From Kiritimatiellia bacterium (GTDB taxonomy: Bacteria > Verrucomicrobiota > Kiritimatiellia > RFP12 > JBMNHG01): a stretch of DNA of 64,000 nucleotides. This document shows, piece by piece, positions 8,787 to 60,981 of the stretch (position 1 is its first letter; the number at the start of each line of letters is the position of its first letter). The stretch covers positions 124,001-188,000 of the forward strand of contig JBMNHG010000002.1 in NCBI GenBank assembly GCA_050950285.1, read 5' to 3'. The translations under genes were made by a program, and so were the position numbers. The notes below the pieces were generated by a model, which saw nothing but the letters and a program-made list of their open reading frames with translations, ran no database searches and was not told the DNA's origin.

Positions 8787-8873
<87 letters not shown>

Positions 8874-22997: not shown

Positions 22998-23074
22998 ACC
23001 CCCGTAGCTCAGTTGGATAGAGCAGCGTCCTTCTAAGTCGCAGGCCGCGCGTTCGAATCGCGCCGGGGGTGCCA
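22998..23074 (+). tRNA. tRNA-Arg(TCT)
   Basis: Acceptor stem ACCCCCG/CGGGGGT, D-arm GCTCAGTTGGATAGAGC, anticodon loop CTTCTAA, T-arm GCGCG-TTCGAAT-CGCGC, encoded CCA. Confidence 0.95.
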
Positions 23075-53200: not shown

Positions 53201-54004
53201 TCAATAGGGGTCCATGAGGGAGTTGTCGTCGGGGCCGATCCATCCGAGGCGGGCGCGCACGTATCGTTTGGCGGGGAGGTTTTCCATCTTCACGGCGCCC
53301 ACGTGGCCGTCGCACCAGACAACGTTCGCGTGGTTGCGGTGGCGGAAGTGGACCGTTGGCTCCGACACGGCGGACGATTCCGTACCCGGCGCGAAGACCC
53401 AGTGGTAGGGTTCGATGAAGGAATATTCGATGAGCGAATCCCTGCCCTTCTTCCCGCCCGGCCTGAGGTAGGCGGCGTCGGCGAACATGGCGGTGTTGGC
53501 GGGGTCGGCAATCCCGTCGAAGGGCATTCCTTCCACAAACGCCGGGCCGGTCATCCCGTCGAGATACAGGCGGGATCCGACGCCCACCAGGTTGTATCCG
53601 TAGCCGCCGCACCCGAGCTCGAAGTTGTCGCCGGGCGCGAGGTGGTCGTTGTGGAACCGGCACGACGGGCACATGCGGATTCCCTTGGCGTCCAGGTAGT
53701 CCGCCAGGGGCCCAAGCTCTCCGACGAAGGGTTTCCGCAGGCTTTCGCGGTATCCGTGCCACCGCTCCAGATCCCTGCCCGACCAGGACGTCGAGGCGGC
53801 GGGAACGTAGTGGCCCGTTTCGGACGCATACGCGGTGTTGGCGATGAACAGCTGGCGGAGGTTGGAGGCGCACTGGGCCCGGCGGGCGTTTTCCATCGCC
53901 ATTCGCACCCCCATCGTCGCGGAGGCCACGAGCAACCCGATGATCGCGACAACGACCAGGAGCTCGACCAGCGTGAAGGCGGAGGAATGGCGATGGAACG
54001 TCAT
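53201..54004 (-). CDS. Prepilin-type N-methylation protein with C-terminal H-X9-DG motif (DUF1559-like)
   Basis: AFTLVELLVVVAIIGLL, C.SNLRQL, CPS, YGYN, RHRNHANVVWCDGHV. Confidence 0.9.
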   Translation of the reverse strand: MTFHRHSSAFTLVELLVVVAIIGLLVASATMGVRMAMENARRAQCASNLRQLFIANTAYASETGHYVPAASTSWSGRDLERWHGYRESLRKPFVGELGPLADYLDAKGIRMCPSCRFHNDHLAPGDNFELGCGGYGYNLVGVGSRLYLDGMTGPAFVEGMPFDGIADPANTAMFADAAYLRPGGKKGRDSLIEYSFIEPYHWVFAPGTESSAVSEPTVHFRHRNHANVVWCDGHVGAVKMENLPAKRYVRARLGWIGPDDNSLMDPY

Positions 54005-54014
54005 GGCGGCCTTG

Positions 54015-56849
54015 TTACGGCTCCATCTTCACCCGGATGCCGTAGAAGCGGCTGCCGGATGCGGGAACGGCGTGCGTCCAGCTGTTCGTTCCGGTGGAGG
54101 ACCGGACGGGAATCTCGTTCGTCTCCACCGCGGCGCCTGCGGCGAGGTCCGTGCGGACGAGCACTTCGAACGGGAGGTCGGAGCCATGGGTGCCGCCGAG
54201 CCAGGTGACGGTCGTGCCGGACTCCGAGGCGGAGACGCCGACGATGCGGAGCGATTCGGCGCCGTCCAGCGGATCCGTGCCGCCGAAGTACTCGGCCCAG
54301 GTCGGCTGTCCGTCGCCGTCGGGATCCGCCGCGGCGGCGGCTTCGGCCTGGACGGCGTCGACACCGCCGGCGGGATCCATCGCGCCGGTGGACAGCAGCC
54401 AGGCGTACGGAACGCCTTGCGACGTGGCGGCGTTGGGATCCAGGAAGACGACGGTCATCGCATGGTCGGCCTGGAGGTTTTCGAGGGTCAGTCCGTTGCC
54501 GGCGACGGGCTGTTCGACGCCGTCGAGAAGGACGGCCGCCAGAAGGTGCCCCTGTGCCGGCGCGAAGGTGAAGGTCACATTGGTGCCGTGCGGGACCGAC
54601 ACGTAGTTCGCCGGTTTCCCGAGGGGCGAGACGCTTCCGTTTCCGGACACGGCCACGTCGATGCGCGAGGCGCCCGAGGAGTTCAGCACGCCCACGGCGT
54701 CGAGATCCACGCCGCCGGAGCCCCACGTCACCCAGGCATCGCTGATCGGACGGCCGGCGGCGTCGGTGCGCGAACCGTCGCCGGGGATGTCCACGATGCG
54801 GACGTGGGTGACCGCCGAGAGGTCGAGCGTGCCGGCCACGGCGTCGGCGCTGTCGGCGAGTTCCGCGAGATCGAAGGGCGTGCCCCAGGAGATGTCGTAG
54901 CTGTTCGCGTGTTTGCCGCAGAGGTTGTAGACATAGCGGGAATCCAGGCTCGCGTAACCCCTGCCGTTCGATATGTCGAGATCTTCGTGCAGGTATGCCG
55001 CCGGGAAGCGGGTGAAGTGGATTCCGTCGGAGGAGACCTCGACATAGCCGAGTTCGGCGGAGAAGCGGTTGTCGACATTGTCCACGACGAAGCCGTTCTC
55101 GAAGACGGCGAAGTCCGGGCCGGCCTTGTCCGTGATGGGCATCGGGAAGGTGAGGGTGATGGTGCCGGGTTCGTCGCCTGCCTCGATCTGCGCGGCCGAG
55201 AGGTCGCCGAGCGAGACGACGTCGAACGCATCGCCGGTGGCGGGGCCGAGGGCGCGCGTCGTATCCTTCCACGCGTCGAGCACGTCGGCCGTGGGCGCGT
55301 ATTCGGAGACTCCGCCGGCCCATGCGGCGAAGGCGGGGTTCACGCCGTTTCCGGCGTCGTCCACCGCGCCGTCGATGCCGCTGCCGCAATAGCCGGGAAT
55401 CGGCGCATCGGTGCCGTTGCCGGCCGCCGTTCCCGTGGGGTCGCTGAAGGAATAGGCGTACTCCAGGCCGTCCATGGCGAAGTAGGCGGGCGTGTTCAGG
55501 CCGTACTGTCCGGTGTCGCTTCCGGACAACGTGAAGGAGAGCGCCTTCACGGCAGGTCCGAAGGAGGAGAGGTCGACCCAGGTCCAGTCGGAAAGGATGT
55601 AGTCGTCGTCGGAGTCGTCGAAGCGGTAGTCGGCGAGGTAGGCGTCGATCGTCCCGAGCGGGTTGCCGCAGGCGTCGCGCGCGGCGATCGTCACCTTGAG
55701 CCAGTCGGGGTCGGTGCCGTCGTCGCCGCCGAACTTCTTCGCCGTGACGCCGCTTCCGTTCAGCATCGTGAGTGCCGCGTAGGTGGTGTTGGCGATGTGG
55801 AATCCCGGCACGAACGCCTGCCGGGGGAAGGTGATCTCGTTCGTGCTCCATACGCCGCCATCGAAGTAGACGGCGTAGTTGCCGTTGGTGGAGAGGTCGT
55901 GGCCGGGCATCCAGACCGCGTATTGGTTCCTGAAGCCGGCTGTGTTGGTGTCGCAGACGGACGAGCAGGAGAAGCCCATGCAATAGCCGTAGGAGTCGGT
56001 GTTGCCGAAGTGGACGTCGAGATCGGTGAAGCCGTCGCCCAGCTGCGGGCCGAAATACGGCGCGCCGGGAGAGGTCGGAAGGGTGTCGAAGGTGGCGTCG
56101 AGGGTCTCGTAGGCCGGGATGTACTCCAGGTCGTCGAGGGCGACGTACGTCGGCGTGTTCAGATAGCCATAGGACATGTCGCTGCCCGAGAAGGAGAACT
56201 CGAGCGACACGACCCGATCACCGAGCGAAGAGAGGTCGACGCGCGTCCAATCGGAGACGATGTAATCCTGGGACGGATCCTCCGGGCGGAAGTCGCCAAG
56301 GTAGAAGTCCACGGATCCGATGGCGGCGCCGCGGGCGTCGCGCCCGGTGATGGTCACCTTGAACCAGTCGGGATCGGTGCCGTCGGCGCCGCCGAACTTC
56401 TTCGCCCAGTTGTCGCCGTTCAGCATCGACAGCGCCACGTAGGTGGTGTTGTTCAGGTAGATCTGGCGCACCTGCACCGGGCCGGAGAAGGTGATGGCCG
56501 TGGGCGTCTCGAATCCGGGGAAGGCCACGGCATAGGCTCCGCTTCCGCCCCGCCCCGTCCCGGGCGTCCAGACCGCGTATTGGTTCGGAGTGCCGGGCGT
56601 GTTGGTGTCCGACACGCGGGAAAGCGCGAAGCCTTCCCAGTATTTGTGGTCGGTGTGGTACTGGTTGCCAAAGAAGGCGTACCCATCGGCGGAGAGGAAA
56701 CCGCCGGAGAGGTCGGACCCGTTGTCGTAGGAATCCGGGGCGTCCAGCCCCATCCCCTCGAAATCCACGCGATGGGTGGCGGCGGCGGCAAAGCTGGCGA
56801 ACGACAGAAGAGCACCGATTACGGCGCAACGGAAAACGATCGATTTCAT
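54015..56849 (-). CDS. Secreted surface protein with two DUF4465 domains, a further beta domain and a PVC-type C-terminal domain; putative cobalamin-binding
   Basis: Signal peptide; two copies of NTTY.AL.MLNG...KKFGG.DGTDPDW.KVTI...YL.D.R...DWT.VDLSS.G...YG.NTP.Y.A.D; VVSLGD...DFAVFENGF...VEVSSDG; DPDGDG...RFYGIRV. Confidence 0.85.
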   Translation of the reverse strand: MKSIVFRCAVIGALLSFASFAAAATHRVDFEGMGLDAPDSYDNGSDLSGGFLSADGYAFFGNQYHTDHKYWEGFALSRVSDTNTPGTPNQYAVWTPGTGRGGSGAYAVAFPGFETPTAITFSGPVQVRQIYLNNTTYVALSMLNGDNWAKKFGGADGTDPDWFKVTITGRDARGAAIGSVDFYLGDFRPEDPSQDYIVSDWTRVDLSSLGDRVVSLEFSFSGSDMSYGYLNTPTYVALDDLEYIPAYETLDATFDTLPTSPGAPYFGPQLGDGFTDLDVHFGNTDSYGYCMGFSCSSVCDTNTAGFRNQYAVWMPGHDLSTNGNYAVYFDGGVWSTNEITFPRQAFVPGFHIANTTYAALTMLNGSGVTAKKFGGDDGTDPDWLKVTIAARDACGNPLGTIDAYLADYRFDDSDDDYILSDWTWVDLSSFGPAVKALSFTLSGSDTGQYGLNTPAYFAMDGLEYAYSFSDPTGTAAGNGTDAPIPGYCGSGIDGAVDDAGNGVNPAFAAWAGGVSEYAPTADVLDAWKDTTRALGPATGDAFDVVSLGDLSAAQIEAGDEPGTITLTFPMPITDKAGPDFAVFENGFVVDNVDNRFSAELGYVEVSSDGIHFTRFPAAYLHEDLDISNGRGYASLDSRYVYNLCGKHANSYDISWGTPFDLAELADSADAVAGTLDLSAVTHVRIVDIPGDGSRTDAAGRPISDAWVTWGSGGVDLDAVGVLNSSGASRIDVAVSGNGSVSPLGKPANYVSVPHGTNVTFTFAPAQGHLLAAVLLDGVEQPVAGNGLTLENLQADHAMTVVFLDPNAATSQGVPYAWLLSTGAMDPAGGVDAVQAEAAAAADPDGDGQPTWAEYFGGTDPLDGAESLRIVGVSASESGTTVTWLGGTHGSDLPFEVLVRTDLAAGAAVETNEIPVRSSTGTNSWTHAVPASGSRFYGIRVKMEP

Positions 56850-56865
56850 GATTCCCCTTTCGCCA

Positions 56866-57198
56866 TCAGTTTCCAGAGACCCAGGCGTTCACGGTGTCGA
56901 CATCGACGCCGGCGGCGGCAAGCCGACCACGGAAACGCGCGCGGAAACGACGCGCGTCGTCCGCGTCGAAGCCTTCGTCATGGAGGTCGTTGTCGATGCG
57001 CTCCATGAGGTCCATCGCCTCGGCGAAGGTCTCTTCCCCGGTGGCTTTCACGGCGGAAAGCGGCGCGCCGTTTTCCGCAGGCTGCGCCTCGGCGGAGGTG
57101 TCGGGGGAATCGGGGGCGGGGGCGGCGGGCTGCCGGGCGCATCCCGCCTGGAGAAGGGCCGCGGCAAGAAGCGCGAACCCAAGCGTGCAGTAGTTCAT
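56866..57198 (-). CDS. Small acidic lipoprotein, unknown function
   Basis: MNYCTLGFALLAAALLQAGC lipobox; RBS GGAAAGG; first gene after the riboswitch. Confidence 0.7.
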   Translation of the reverse strand: MNYCTLGFALLAAALLQAGCARQPAAPAPDSPDTSAEAQPAENGAPLSAVKATGEETFAEAMDLMERIDNDLHDEGFDADDARRFRARFRGRLAAAGVDVDTVNAWVSGN

Positions 57199-57330
57199 GT
57201 GGACCTTTCCAGGCCCCATCCCAGCAAGGAGCGGAAGGTCGGCATGCAGGCCGTCCACGGGCATCGTACTGCCTGGATGCATGGCGCTGCCGATTCCGTC
57301 CCCGCATTCGCGTGGGGCCGTGAATCCGAC

Positions 57331-57500
57331 GCCTGGCTCGTCTTCTGGCTTTGCCTTCGCCAGCCGGCCTTCCCGCCGCCTTTCGGCAACAGTGGCATCG
57401 TGGCTGGGGGGATCCCGCACTCGCGGGCATGGCTTACAGCGGCGCGACCGCGTCCGAATCTCACGGACTTCCGTACACGCAGGCATCGATGACGGCGCCC
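57331..57500 (-). promoter_or_regulatory. Cobalamin riboswitch
   Basis: Minus strand: CGGAAGTCCGTGAGATTCGGACGCGGTCGCGCCGCTGTAA...GCCACTG...GGGAAGGC...AGCCAGAAGACGAGCC (B12 box). Confidence 0.92.
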
Positions 57501-57585
57501 ACCGTAGGGCATCCCCGCCCCAAAGTCCAGCGCAAACATCTCGCCCTTTCCGGACACGGCCGGATCTGGTACAGTGGCCGACATC

Positions 57586-58428: not shown

Positions 58429-59206
58429 ATGAAAATCTTGATGGCCGGCGACATCGTCGGCTCGCCCGGACGCAACGCGTTCAAGATCGTCGTGCAGCGC
58501 CTTCGCGCCGCCGGCGAAATCCACGCCGTGGTCGCCAACGCCGAGAACTGCGCCGCCGGAAGCGGCATCACCGCCGATCTCGCGGAGGAGCTTTTCGCCG
58601 CCGGCGCCGACGTGCTCACCCTCGGAGACCACACCTGGAACCAAAAGGGCCTCGATGCCTTCATCGCCCGGGAGAGGCGCCTCCTCCGCCCCGCGAACTT
58701 CTCCCCCGCATGCCCCGGACGCGGCATCGTCACCGTGCAGACGCCCGTCGGGCCGCTCGCCGTGATGAACCTGATCGGGCGCGTCTTCATGGCCAACCCC
58801 GCCGAATGCCCCTTCGCCGCCGCCGACTGCCGCGCTGAAGGCCCTTCCCGCCGGTTCGCCCGTGCTCGTGGACTTCCACGCCGAGGCCACCTCCGAGAAG
58901 ATCGCGATGGGCCGCTACCTCGATGGACGCGTCGCCGCCGTGGCCGGCACCCATACCCACGTCCAGACCAGCGACGACCGCATCCTCCCCGGCGGCACCG
59001 CCTATCTCACCGACCTCGGGATGACCGGCCCCGTCGATTCCGTGATCGGTCGCGCCATCGAGCCCGTCCTCAAGAAATTCACCACCGGAATGCCCGCGAA
59101 ATTCAATGTCGCCTCCGGCCCCGCCGCCCTCGAGGGAATCATCGTCGAGGTCGACCGCCACACCTGCCGCGCCACCGCCCTCCGCCGGGTGCGCGAATTC
59201 GCCTGA
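58429..59206 (+). CDS. ymdB: YmdB-family metallophosphoesterase; frameshift near 58828
   Basis: GDIVG.PG, NAEN.A.GSG, TLGDH, RPAN, then [27 protein letters not shown] in another frame. Confidence 0.9.
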
Positions 59207-59220
59207 CCCACCCCCACACA

Positions 59221-59243
59221 CCCAACCCAACCCAACCCAACCC
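59221..59243 (+). repeat. (CCCAA)4 microsatellite
   Basis: cccaacccaacccaacccaaccc, ending 9 nt before ATG 59253. Confidence 0.8.
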
Positions 59244-59252
59244 GGACACGCC

Positions 59253-60981
59253 ATGGATTCCGCACTCGCATCCCGCATCGACGCGCGCCTGCGCTTCGTC
59301 TACGGTCCCCGAAACCGCCGCATCCCTCCTGCCGCGCGTCCTCGCGCTGTGGCCGAACGCTGGAAGCCCCGCATCGCCCCGCGCCGCGTCGGGTGGGATG
59401 CCTCGGACGCCCTCCTCATCACCTACGGCGACTCCATCCTGCCGGCCGGGGGGGTCGGGCGCCACGCCGCTCGCCGCGCTCCGCGACTTCCTCGATTCAC
59501 GCGTGGGCGACCTCCTGTCCTTCGTCCACCTCCTCCCCTTCTACCCCTACACGTCGGACGACGGCTTCGCCGTGGAGGACTTCCGCCGCGTCCGCCCCGA
59601 CCTCGGAGGGTGGGACGACATCGCCGCCCTCGCCGAACGCCGCCGCGTGGTCTTCGACGGCGTCGTCAACCACGTCTCCGCCTCCTCCGCCTACCTCAAG
59701 GGGTATCTCGCGGGCGACCCCCGCTACGCGGACTTCTTCATCGACCTGCCGCCCGACACCGACACCCGCTCGGTCCTCCGCACGCGGAATTCTCCCCCTC
59801 CTGCACGACTACCCCGCGGGCAGACGGCTCCACCCCGCTGGCTCTGGACCACCTTCAGCCGCGACCAGCCCGACCTGAACTTCCACAACCCGGAGGTCCT
59901 CCTCGAGATTCTCGACGTGCTCCTTGGCTACGCCGCGCGCGGCGCCTCGATGATCCGCCTCGACGCCATCCCCTACCTCTGGAAGCAACTCGGCACCTCC
60001 TGCGCCCACCTGCCCCAGACCCACGAGCTCATCCGGCTCTTCCGCGACGTCCTGGACGCCGCCGCACCCCACGTGCTCCTGCTCTCCGAGACCAACGTCC
60101 CCCACCAGGAGAACATCGCCTACTTCGGCGACGCCGGCGATGAAGCGCAGATGATCTACAACTTCGCGCTCGCCCCGCTCTATCGTCCACTCCCTCCATA
60201 CCGGAGACGGCACCGTCCTCTCCGACTGGGCCTCCGGCATCCGGTGGATCGGCCCGCGCGCCACCTACCTCAACATCACCGCCACCCACGACGGCATCGG
60301 GATGCGCCCCACCGAAGGCCTGCTGGACGAACCGTCCCGCAAGGCGCTCATGGAGCTCTCCTTCGCGCGCGGCGGCGATGTCACCGGAAAGCGCAACTCC
60401 GACGGCTCCATCTCGCCCTACGAACTCAATCTCGGCTACTTCGACGCCGTGAACGACCCCGGCGGCACGGACTCCCTCTCCGTGCAGGTGGACCGCTTCC
60501 TCGTCTCGCAGGCCATCCCGATGTGCCTGATGGGCATGCCGGGCCTCTACATCCACAGCCTCGTCGGATCGCGCAACGACTACGAGGGCGTGAAGCGCAC
60601 CGGACGCGCCCGCAGCATCAAACCGCGAGCAACTCCGCGCGGAAGATCTCGCCCGCGACCTCGACGATCCATCGACGCTCCGCGCGCGCGTCTTCGGCGG
60701 CATCGCCCGTCTCCTGCGCCTCCGCGCCGCGCAACCCGCCTTCCACCCCGACGCCTCCCAGTCCATCCCCCGGGCCGGCCAAGGAACTCTTCGCCGTACG
60801 GCGCGAATCCGCCTGCGGCCAGATCCTCTTCGCCCTCCACAACCTCGCCGGAAATCCCGCCGCCTTCACCCCGCAAGCCCACGACGGCCCCGCGCGCTGG
60901 CGCGACCTCCTCGACCGCGAAGAAGGCGAAGGCGCCGTGCCGATCGCCCCCTACCAAATCCGCTGGATCACCCGGCGATGA
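59253..60981 (+). CDS. GH13_18 sugar (sucrose/glucosylglycerate-like) phosphorylase; several frameshifts
   Basis: LLITYGDS, VHLLPFYPYTSDDGF, VVNHVS, WTTFS.DQPDLN, IRLDAIPYLWK, ETNVPH.EN, ATHDGIG, PYELN, GMPGLY across frames. Confidence 0.85.

Follow-up and report, generated by a model that had tools for sequence, protein, structure and literature searches.

A cobalamin-riboswitch operon pairing a predicted multivalent cobamide binder with an H-X9-DG pilin-like protein, and its near mutual exclusion with riboswitch-linked BtuB in Kiritimatiellia

Introduction

In diderm bacteria, the accepted route of vitamin B12 through the outer membrane is the TonB-dependent receptor BtuB. In the Escherichia coli-type route, BtuB is combined with TonB-ExbBD and BtuFCD, and the B12 loci of Bacteroides thetaiotaomicron encode BtuB together with the surface lipoproteins BtuG, BtuH, and BtuJ. 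Here, we present an analysis of an operon of a Kiritimatiellia bacterium (assembly GCA_050950285.1), which lies in a stretch of 64,000 nucleotides (contig JBMNHG010000002.1, positions 124,001 to 188,000; referred to as the window) and in which a cobalamin riboswitch precedes genes for a small lipoprotein-like protein, a secreted 944-aa protein, and a 267-aa prepilin-like protein of the H-X9-DG/DUF1559 type. This operon shares with the B. thetaiotaomicron loci the riboswitch control, BtuJ-type DUF4465 domains, and a BtuH-like domain; surface capture before import, as in those loci, is likewise proposed here from genes alone. However, this genome lacks BtuB and TonB, and the operon lacks a BtuG propeller; moreover, a single protein, which is not a lipoprotein and ends in a Verrucomicrobiota tag, combines the J and H domains, and a prepilin occupies the place of the receptor. 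With the E. coli-type route, the genome shares the riboswitch and homologues of BtuF, BtuC, and BtuD, which are scattered, while the outer-membrane half is missing.

The H-X9-DG/DUF1559 (SBP_bac_10) family is expanded in bacteria of the Planctomycetes-Verrucomicrobia-Chlamydiae (PVC) group, and the accessible text of the source gives no function for it (PMC8567305). The operon pilin shares with the PVC DUF1559 (PF07596)/H-X9-DG (TIGR04294) proteins a class III leader, the N-terminal DUF1559 match, and the literal motif; unlike other PVC H-X9-DG proteins, it is single copy and falls into a conserved clade that is linked to the riboswitch and has distinct motifs. Competence pili use substrate-binding minor pilins such as ComP. 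Type IV filament uptake has in common with our proposal the pilin fold and the logic of a filament that brings cargo through the outer membrane; in contrast, the cargo here would be a vitamin, the assembly genes are unlinked, and the structural Z-scores are modest and uninformative on function. According to an excerpted source, dextran binds pilus-like fibres of Planctomycetes, and fibre-linked uptake has been speculated (PMC5394234). Among open-licence PMC and bioRxiv texts, supplements and regulon databases apart, we found nothing linking H-X9-DG pilins to B12, and the open-licence texts held nothing on a cobalamin riboswitch with a prepilin or on B12 uptake, type IV pili, Verrucomicrobiota, and BtuB together; the accessible part of a paper on DUF4465 proteins does not mention "pilin" (PMC13398666). 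An earlier annotation of the riboswitch-pilin link may exist.

Results

The genome of 4.05 Mb (99.35% complete) contains a single RF00174 match, the operon's own. It encodes B12-linked proteins (homocysteine methyltransferase domains, a corrinoid protein, and four B12 radical S-adenosylmethionine (SAM)-like proteins) as well as the salvage genes CobO, CobU, CobT, and CobS; MetE had no match in the genome, and neither did six genes for de novo corrin or tetrapyrrole synthesis (CbiA, CbiB, CbiC, CbiD, HemB, and CysG), searched with one query each. Genome-wide, the TonB-dependent receptor family PF00593 and TonB_C gave no match although the controls were detected, and tblastn with 22 TonB receptors found none. 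An earlier note on this DNA, made from the sequence alone, had read the operon as a pseudopilus-assisted cobamide capture or uptake route without BtuB or BtuFCD. The operon indeed contains neither a TonB receptor gene nor an ATP-binding cassette gene; as regards BtuFCD, however, this does not extend to the genome, where genes for BtuF, BtuC, and BtuD homologues (40, 54, and 45% identity to those of a btuB operon) are scattered and unlinked to the operon. Six secretins and 11 T2SSE (pilus-type) ATPases are encoded as well. Judging from this gene content, the missing B12 uptake step is that at the outer membrane, and the sole B12-riboswitch operon is the one for the binder and the pilin.

All 99 sampled genomes of the class (19 + 80) were scanned for RF00174, and 60 loci were read in the second set, in which the five genomes with the weakest riboswitch matches were not among the loci read. 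The riboswitch precedes genes for a secreted protein and the pilin in 39 of the 99 genomes and a gene for a Pfam-confirmed TonB receptor, i.e., the E. coli-type alternative, in 21; six of the remaining genomes have other genes behind the riboswitch. In this survey, the pilin operon and riboswitch-linked BtuB come close to excluding each other. Because relatives carry either the pilin pairing or the standard receptor, and seldom both, the pilin likely represents an alternative B12 import route.

Because most genomes hold one riboswitch, receptor and pilin were also searched for genome-wide. The pilin-operon genomes numbered 42, i.e., 41 confirmed ones and G006, in which the contig ends before the pilin. 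Relatives of the group B receptor, which is closest to TIGR01779 BtuB, were found in none of these 42 genomes, while the controls were detected. Conversely, the heads of clade-2 and clade-3 pilins were found in none of 20 receptor-only genomes (5/5 controls each), and the operon pilin query gave nothing better than E 4e-13 in receptor-only genomes. Families f6, f10, f15, and f24 each include genomes of either state, suggesting that BtuB and the pilin operon have replaced one another repeatedly, but related genomes are not independent, and the Fisher value obtained for the pattern is an overstatement.

Three further observations concern the distribution of these genes. G386 (loci L069 and L043) carries a riboswitch-preceded cobT-cobS-cobU-btuB-exbBD-tonB-btuCD operon, in which all names except that of the receptor come from our reading of the sequences, together with a riboswitch-preceded binder-pilin operon. 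In families f36, f43, and f58, none of 29 genomes has a TonB-dependent receptor, while in many of them prepilin candidates number from tens into the hundreds, an inverse pattern. Finally, none of the 13 genomes of genus g11, which is in the same order, has a cobalamin riboswitch match.

Linkage of riboswitch and pilin was analyzed beyond the class by running the pilin query on 301 genomes of the phylum and scanning for RF00174 in 80 genomes drawn from this set or from DUF4465 matches; a pilin was counted as linked with a riboswitch at most 5 kb upstream on the same strand, and 121 pilin matches in 77 genomes were listed. Conservation of the linkage in relatives had been named beforehand as a test, and each of the 14 closest orthologues has a cobalamin-clan riboswitch no more than 5 kb upstream, recognised by RF00174 in 13 cases and by a sub-threshold match to AdoCbl-II in the remaining one. 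Among the matches listed, linked pilins made up 13/14 in the band of at least 170 bits and 14/32, 13/30, and 10/45 in the successively lower bands. Of 71 riboswitch matches, 48 lie ahead of a pilin in this list, or 24 of 39 if only those above the cut-off are counted. A laxer rescan of seven unlinked high scorers revealed sub-threshold cobalamin-clan matches in five, including the fourteenth close orthologue, and no riboswitch in G240 or in one locus at a contig edge.

Pilin phylogeny was assessed with a quick tree and FastTree. In the quick tree (n = 73), 35 of 36 linked pilins and six of unknown status fall on one branch (Shimodaira-Hasegawa-like approximate likelihood ratio test support, 92) that holds none of the 31 unlinked paralogues, 26 of which come from loci drawn by TIGR04294. 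Because the linked pilins had been collected for their similarity to the query, this clustering is partly expected, and the riboswitch link is the independent part. H-X9-DG pilins number tens to hundreds in some relatives, as would befit a chance neighbour from an expanded family, unrelated to B12; however, this genome's single such pilin and single riboswitch are joined, linked pilins lie in distinct clades that exclude unlinked paralogues, and the link persists though the genes flanking the operon vary by family. The linkage counts and the pilin tree already largely refute a chance association, and we consider it extremely improbable.

The partners of the pilin are less constant than the pilin itself. 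In the 14 closest loci, the gene before the pilin encodes a BtuH-like domain in all 14 and DUF4465 in only seven. Of the pairing of DUF4465 with a pilin put forward in the earlier note, it is therefore the pilin, present in all 14 loci, that stands, while DUF4465 is not the constant part; DUF4465 as the obligatory partner of the pilin was dropped. The gene that comes first after the riboswitch in families f36, f43, and f58 is usually that for the pilin, and in L071, L074, L077, and L085 (f36) it stands alone there, the adjacent gene being oppositely oriented. In L058, L078, L083, and L084, the pilin gene lies ahead of BtuF-like and cobalamin genes. In G189 (L062:4956-6512, C1), a BtuH-like domain and a pilin lie in one 518-aa frame behind the first gene of the riboswitch operon, which is either a true fusion or a lost stop codon. 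In L150, L169, L174, L182, L187, L203, and others, secreted proteins matching no Pfam family lie between riboswitch and pilin in place of the known binder domains, of which there is little or no trace; these proteins are candidates for new cobamide-binding families. In L068:6741-9558 (G363:C50), a TonB-receptor-like gene has directly behind it a prepilin-like gene, which falls outside the B12 clades, and a carbohydrate-enzyme-like gene; this is a hint that other uptake loci may be accompanied by pilins, too.

These arrangements bear on whether the pilin, without contacting B12 itself, could be a type II secretion adaptor dedicated to the export or display of the co-encoded B12-binding protein. 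Minor pseudopilins recognise secretion substrates; the pilin gene follows that for the secreted protein in every riboswitch-pilin locus of the class that was read, and L062 holds binder domain and pilin in one open frame. On the other hand, in the f36 loci named above the riboswitch leads to a pilin gene with the next gene facing away; in addition, the pilin head is conserved across very diverse partners, and many proteins with the same C-terminal tag lack an H-X9-DG pilin of their own, as this genome has just one (the shared tag being a matter of a motif count that includes chance matches and of Atlas neighbours). An adaptor would also leave the outer-membrane step unexplained, and we regard this explanation as quite unlikely.

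One member of the pilin clade has other neighbours. In G240 (L061:2896-7959, C5), the trio of DUF4465, BtuH-like, and pilin genes adjoins a divergent Fur-family gene and precedes a gene for a CobW/COG0523 GTPase; from these neighbours, this module may be regulated by metal instead. The three-part module with a Fur-family and a CobW neighbour and with no riboswitch detected would fit a system that scavenges a wider cargo, such as tetrapyrroles or cobalt or zinc complexes, and for which B12 is one regulator among several. Solved B12 complexes exist, however, for both types of binder domain, and all close orthologues have the riboswitch link, making a wider cargo very unlikely.

The riboswitch inferred in the earlier note matched RF00174 with 54.2 bits (gathering score, 31.5; E 1.1e-10) over the full model (1-189), upstream of and on the same strand as the operon genes (Table 1). 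Likewise, the three co-oriented, closely packed genes were found as described, i.e., minus-strand open reading frames of 110, 944, and 267 aa located 3' of the riboswitch with intergenic gaps of 16 and 10 bp. The leader between aptamer and first start codon is strongly folded, and its GGAAAGG ribosome-binding site is only partly paired in the predicted hairpin, which suggests that the operon may be controlled at the translational level. A terminator scan gave three sites versus 3.3 expected and is hence uninformative.

Table 1. Positions of the operon features in the window
Feature	Position	Strand	Evidence
Cobalamin riboswitch aptamer	57318..57517	minus	RF00174 covariance model
Leader, aptamer to first start codon	57199..57317	minus	Folding z -2.9
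110-aa lipoprotein-like protein	56866..57198	minus	Open reading frame call, no family
944-aa secreted protein	54015..56849	minus	Open reading frame, Pfam, models
DUF4465 (BtuJ-type) domain 1	56127..56651	minus	NTTYVA and NTPTYV loop motifs
DUF4465 (BtuJ-type) domain 2	55464..55994	minus	NTTYAA and NTPAYF loop motifs
BtuH-like domain, residues 490-735	54645..55382	minus	AlphaFold model and structure comparison
C-terminal domain	54018..54428	minus	Atlas neighbours and motif count
267-aa H-X9-DG/DUF1559 prepilin-like protein	53201..54004	minus	Open reading frame and Pfam
H-X9-DG motif, H222 to G233 (H222-X9-D232-G233)	53306..53341	minus	Sequence

The 944-aa protein consists of a signal peptide, two DUF4465 domains, a BtuH-like domain, a linker domain, and a Verrucomicrobiota C-terminal domain. 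The two DUF4465 domains that the earlier note had recognised were confirmed (Pfam E 4e-93; PF14717 scores of 162.8 and 159.1 bits versus a cut-off of 25), while the BtuH-like third domain had been overlooked. The gene is the only one for a DUF4465 protein in this genome, and a search of the genome contigs with the protein for related loci gave no confirmed match. Both DUF4465 domains align to the solved B12 binders PDB 9fct, 9qpm, and 9hmu, and both keep the loop tyrosines of B12-binding DUF4465 proteins. According to the accessible text of PMC13398666, the B12-binding tyrosines of DUF4465 lie in the DE helix and the HI loop (GTPAYF), and eight DUF4465 proteins, in a set that includes PVC members, bind B12; accordingly, DUF4465 binders, which the earlier note placed in Bacteroidota, are indeed known there but are not confined to that phylum.

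Residues 490-735 match no Pfam family. Their AlphaFold model (predicted local distance difference test (pLDDT) score, 90.6) resembles BtuH2 (7biz; Z 12.7, root mean square deviation 3.2, 169 residues aligned) and the H domain of BtuG1 (8blw; Z 12.5), with the next unrelated row at Z 9.1; in Foldseek, 8blw was the single match under 1e-3 (E 7.8e-5). BtuH2 contacts B12, as reported in an excerpted source, via Asn399, Phe401, Gln333, His476, Tyr510, Trp511, Trp577, and Leu578 (PMC8941943). The FEN-x-F motif of our domain profile-aligns (E 0.0086) to the Asn399/Phe401 stretch, with the numbering offset inferred; its Asn is invariant (121/121). Identity is 19-23%. The Gln of the PAPGQ motif is lost, and of the BtuH2 contacts, only Asn and Phe could be mapped. 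The family of this domain comprises 2,784 representatives at E ≤ 0.001. Because it combines two BtuJ-type DUF4465 domains with a BtuH-like domain, we predict from homology and modelling that the 944-aa protein is a trivalent, i.e., three-site, cobamide binder.

The C-terminal domain is common to secreted Verrucomicrobiota enzymes (Atlas neighbours) and likely acts as an export or surface-anchoring tag. A phmmer search with it found no full-length paralogue among crude gene calls of the genome. Approximately 25 large, secreted-looking proteins of this genome have at their ends a short domain that resembles it and contains an F[FY][RK] motif, a pattern with 31 matches genome-wide, some of them by chance; this terminal domain is possibly a Verrucomicrobiota sorting signal.

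Regarding the 267-aa protein, its assignment as a prepilin of the H-X9-DG type in the earlier note is borne out by matches to N_methyl (29.9 bits; cut-off, 21.2) and PF07596 (DUF1559; 32.8 bits; cut-off, 23.3) and by the literal motif, while TIGR04294 itself scores 13.7 bits and thus falls below its cut-off of 19; the G194 orthologue exceeds that cut-off with 29.5 bits. The H, D, and G of the motif are invariant in 120/120 aligned homologues, and among the 22 open reading frames with a prepilin motif in this genome, the operon pilin alone has an H-x-DG motif. The leader is of class III (A|FTLVE, with Phe1, Glu5, and the small residue Ala at -1). The model (pLDDT score, 93) has an N-terminal helix of 52 residues (12-63) and an elaborated head. 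Its top structural matches are pilins, with modest Z-scores (PilA4, 6.0; EpsG, 5.2; and ComP, 4.8); Foldseek gave no match under E 0.001, and within the head only the generic pilin core could be assigned.

The pilin could instead be anchored in the inner membrane and bind or relay B12 in the periplasm, forming no filament and serving as a sink that hands B12 to BtuF, with the outer membrane crossed via a non-specific large channel. Filament genes are not linked to the pilin, which in L058 and L078 lies immediately ahead of BtuF-like genes, and planctomycete proteins with N_methyl and SBP_bac_10 were present in detergent-soluble fractions in the accessible text of PMC8567305. Yet the class III leader with Glu5, the pilin-like helix, and the head are all kept, a separate BtuF is retained in the genome, and the pilins of the class are paired with surface-type binders bearing PEP-CTERM-like or C-terminal tags. 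On balance, a relay of this kind seems to us unlikely, though it is the likeliest of the alternatives.

Finally, the 110-aa protein has no family in Pfam and profile searches, and its Atlas leads are all below 0.9; its lipoprotein status is based on an imperfect lipobox (LQAG-C) read from the sequence. Homologues at the equivalent position occur in only four relatives (G006, G014, G034, and G386), and we therefore consider it an accessory part. Elsewhere in the window, two genes at 58429-60981 (plus strand), which we take to be metallophosphoesterase-like and sucrose-phosphorylase-like, appear broken by frameshifts, probably assembly indels; 8787-8872 (minus strand) matches the group II intron RF00029 with 52.1 bits; and 22998-23071 (plus strand) is a tRNA gene with the anticodon UCU according to the alignment.

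Discussion

Our findings support the interpretation in the earlier note of pseudopilus-assisted cobamide capture or uptake, and the pilin very probably serves B12 acquisition in some way. Concerning how it does so, we lean, if only slightly, toward a model built on gene content in which the trivalent binder would capture cobamides at the surface, the pilin would enable their passage through a secretin, and BtuFCD would import them, a route that would substitute for BtuB. According to this model, low B12 would switch the operon on via the riboswitch. The 944-aa protein would be exported and displayed and, as its homology and fold suggest, bind B12 in its two BtuJ-type domains and one BtuH-like domain. 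The pilin, once processed, would be incorporated as a minor subunit specific to its substrate into a general type IV filament or type II secretion machine, for which genes elsewhere in the genome would provide the components. In the weakest step of the model, the pilin head would take over the cobamide and deliver it via the secretin to the periplasm, from where the unlinked BtuF, BtuC, and BtuD, whose genes are present, would carry it into the cytoplasm. There, the products of CobO, CobU, CobT, and CobS may complete the cobamide, to be used by a split methionine synthase and the B12 radical SAM enzymes, the genes for which are likewise present.

Several observations weigh against this model. 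As for the alternation, G386, one of the 99 class genomes, has both riboswitch operons; 29 of the 99 lack a riboswitch match, and five more have loci that were not read. Most genomes hold one riboswitch, so that exclusivity at the level of the locus is partly built in, and related genomes are not independent. Full-length relatives of the group A receptor, a receptor assigned to B12 by its riboswitch alone, occur in four of the 42 pilin-operon genomes, and the absence of clade-1 pilins from receptor-only genomes refers to one whole-protein query with at most eight candidates scored per genome. A TonB receptor of some kind is kept in 21 of the 22 pilin-operon genomes of the class that were tested, and the proposition that pilin-operon genomes lack any TonB receptor was dropped. 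As for the pilin, adding 18 linked pilins to the tree gave at least three clades, which may not be monophyletic; the G240 clade member has Fur-family and CobW/COG0523 neighbours in place of a detected riboswitch; no ATPase, platform, or secretin genes were found in the operons inspected; and the leader has Ala rather than Gly at -1. Lastly, the evidence for the model is genomic throughout.

While the capture domains are of known kinds, the transport route via a pilin would be of a kind not previously described if the steps proposed here hold. More broadly, and with more doubt than confidence, we speculate that PVC bacteria may possess an import filament independent of TonB, with H-X9-DG/DUF1559 pilins as exchangeable heads that each confer substrate specificity; the B12 clades would then be the first with an assignable cargo, and the tens to hundreds of paralogues in lineages free of TonB receptors might take on, for sugars and other nutrients, the role of TonB receptors elsewhere.

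Altogether, our analysis describes a near-complete, B12-dependent genome that has neither TonB nor a TonB receptor and a class in which the pilin operon and BtuB alternate behind the riboswitch, and it defines a large, unnamed family of BtuH-like domains. If the model is true, one of the largest unexplained families of PVC proteins would gain a ligand and a regulator, along with a simple growth assay, and nutrient import along pilus-like fibres in PVC bacteria would become testable.

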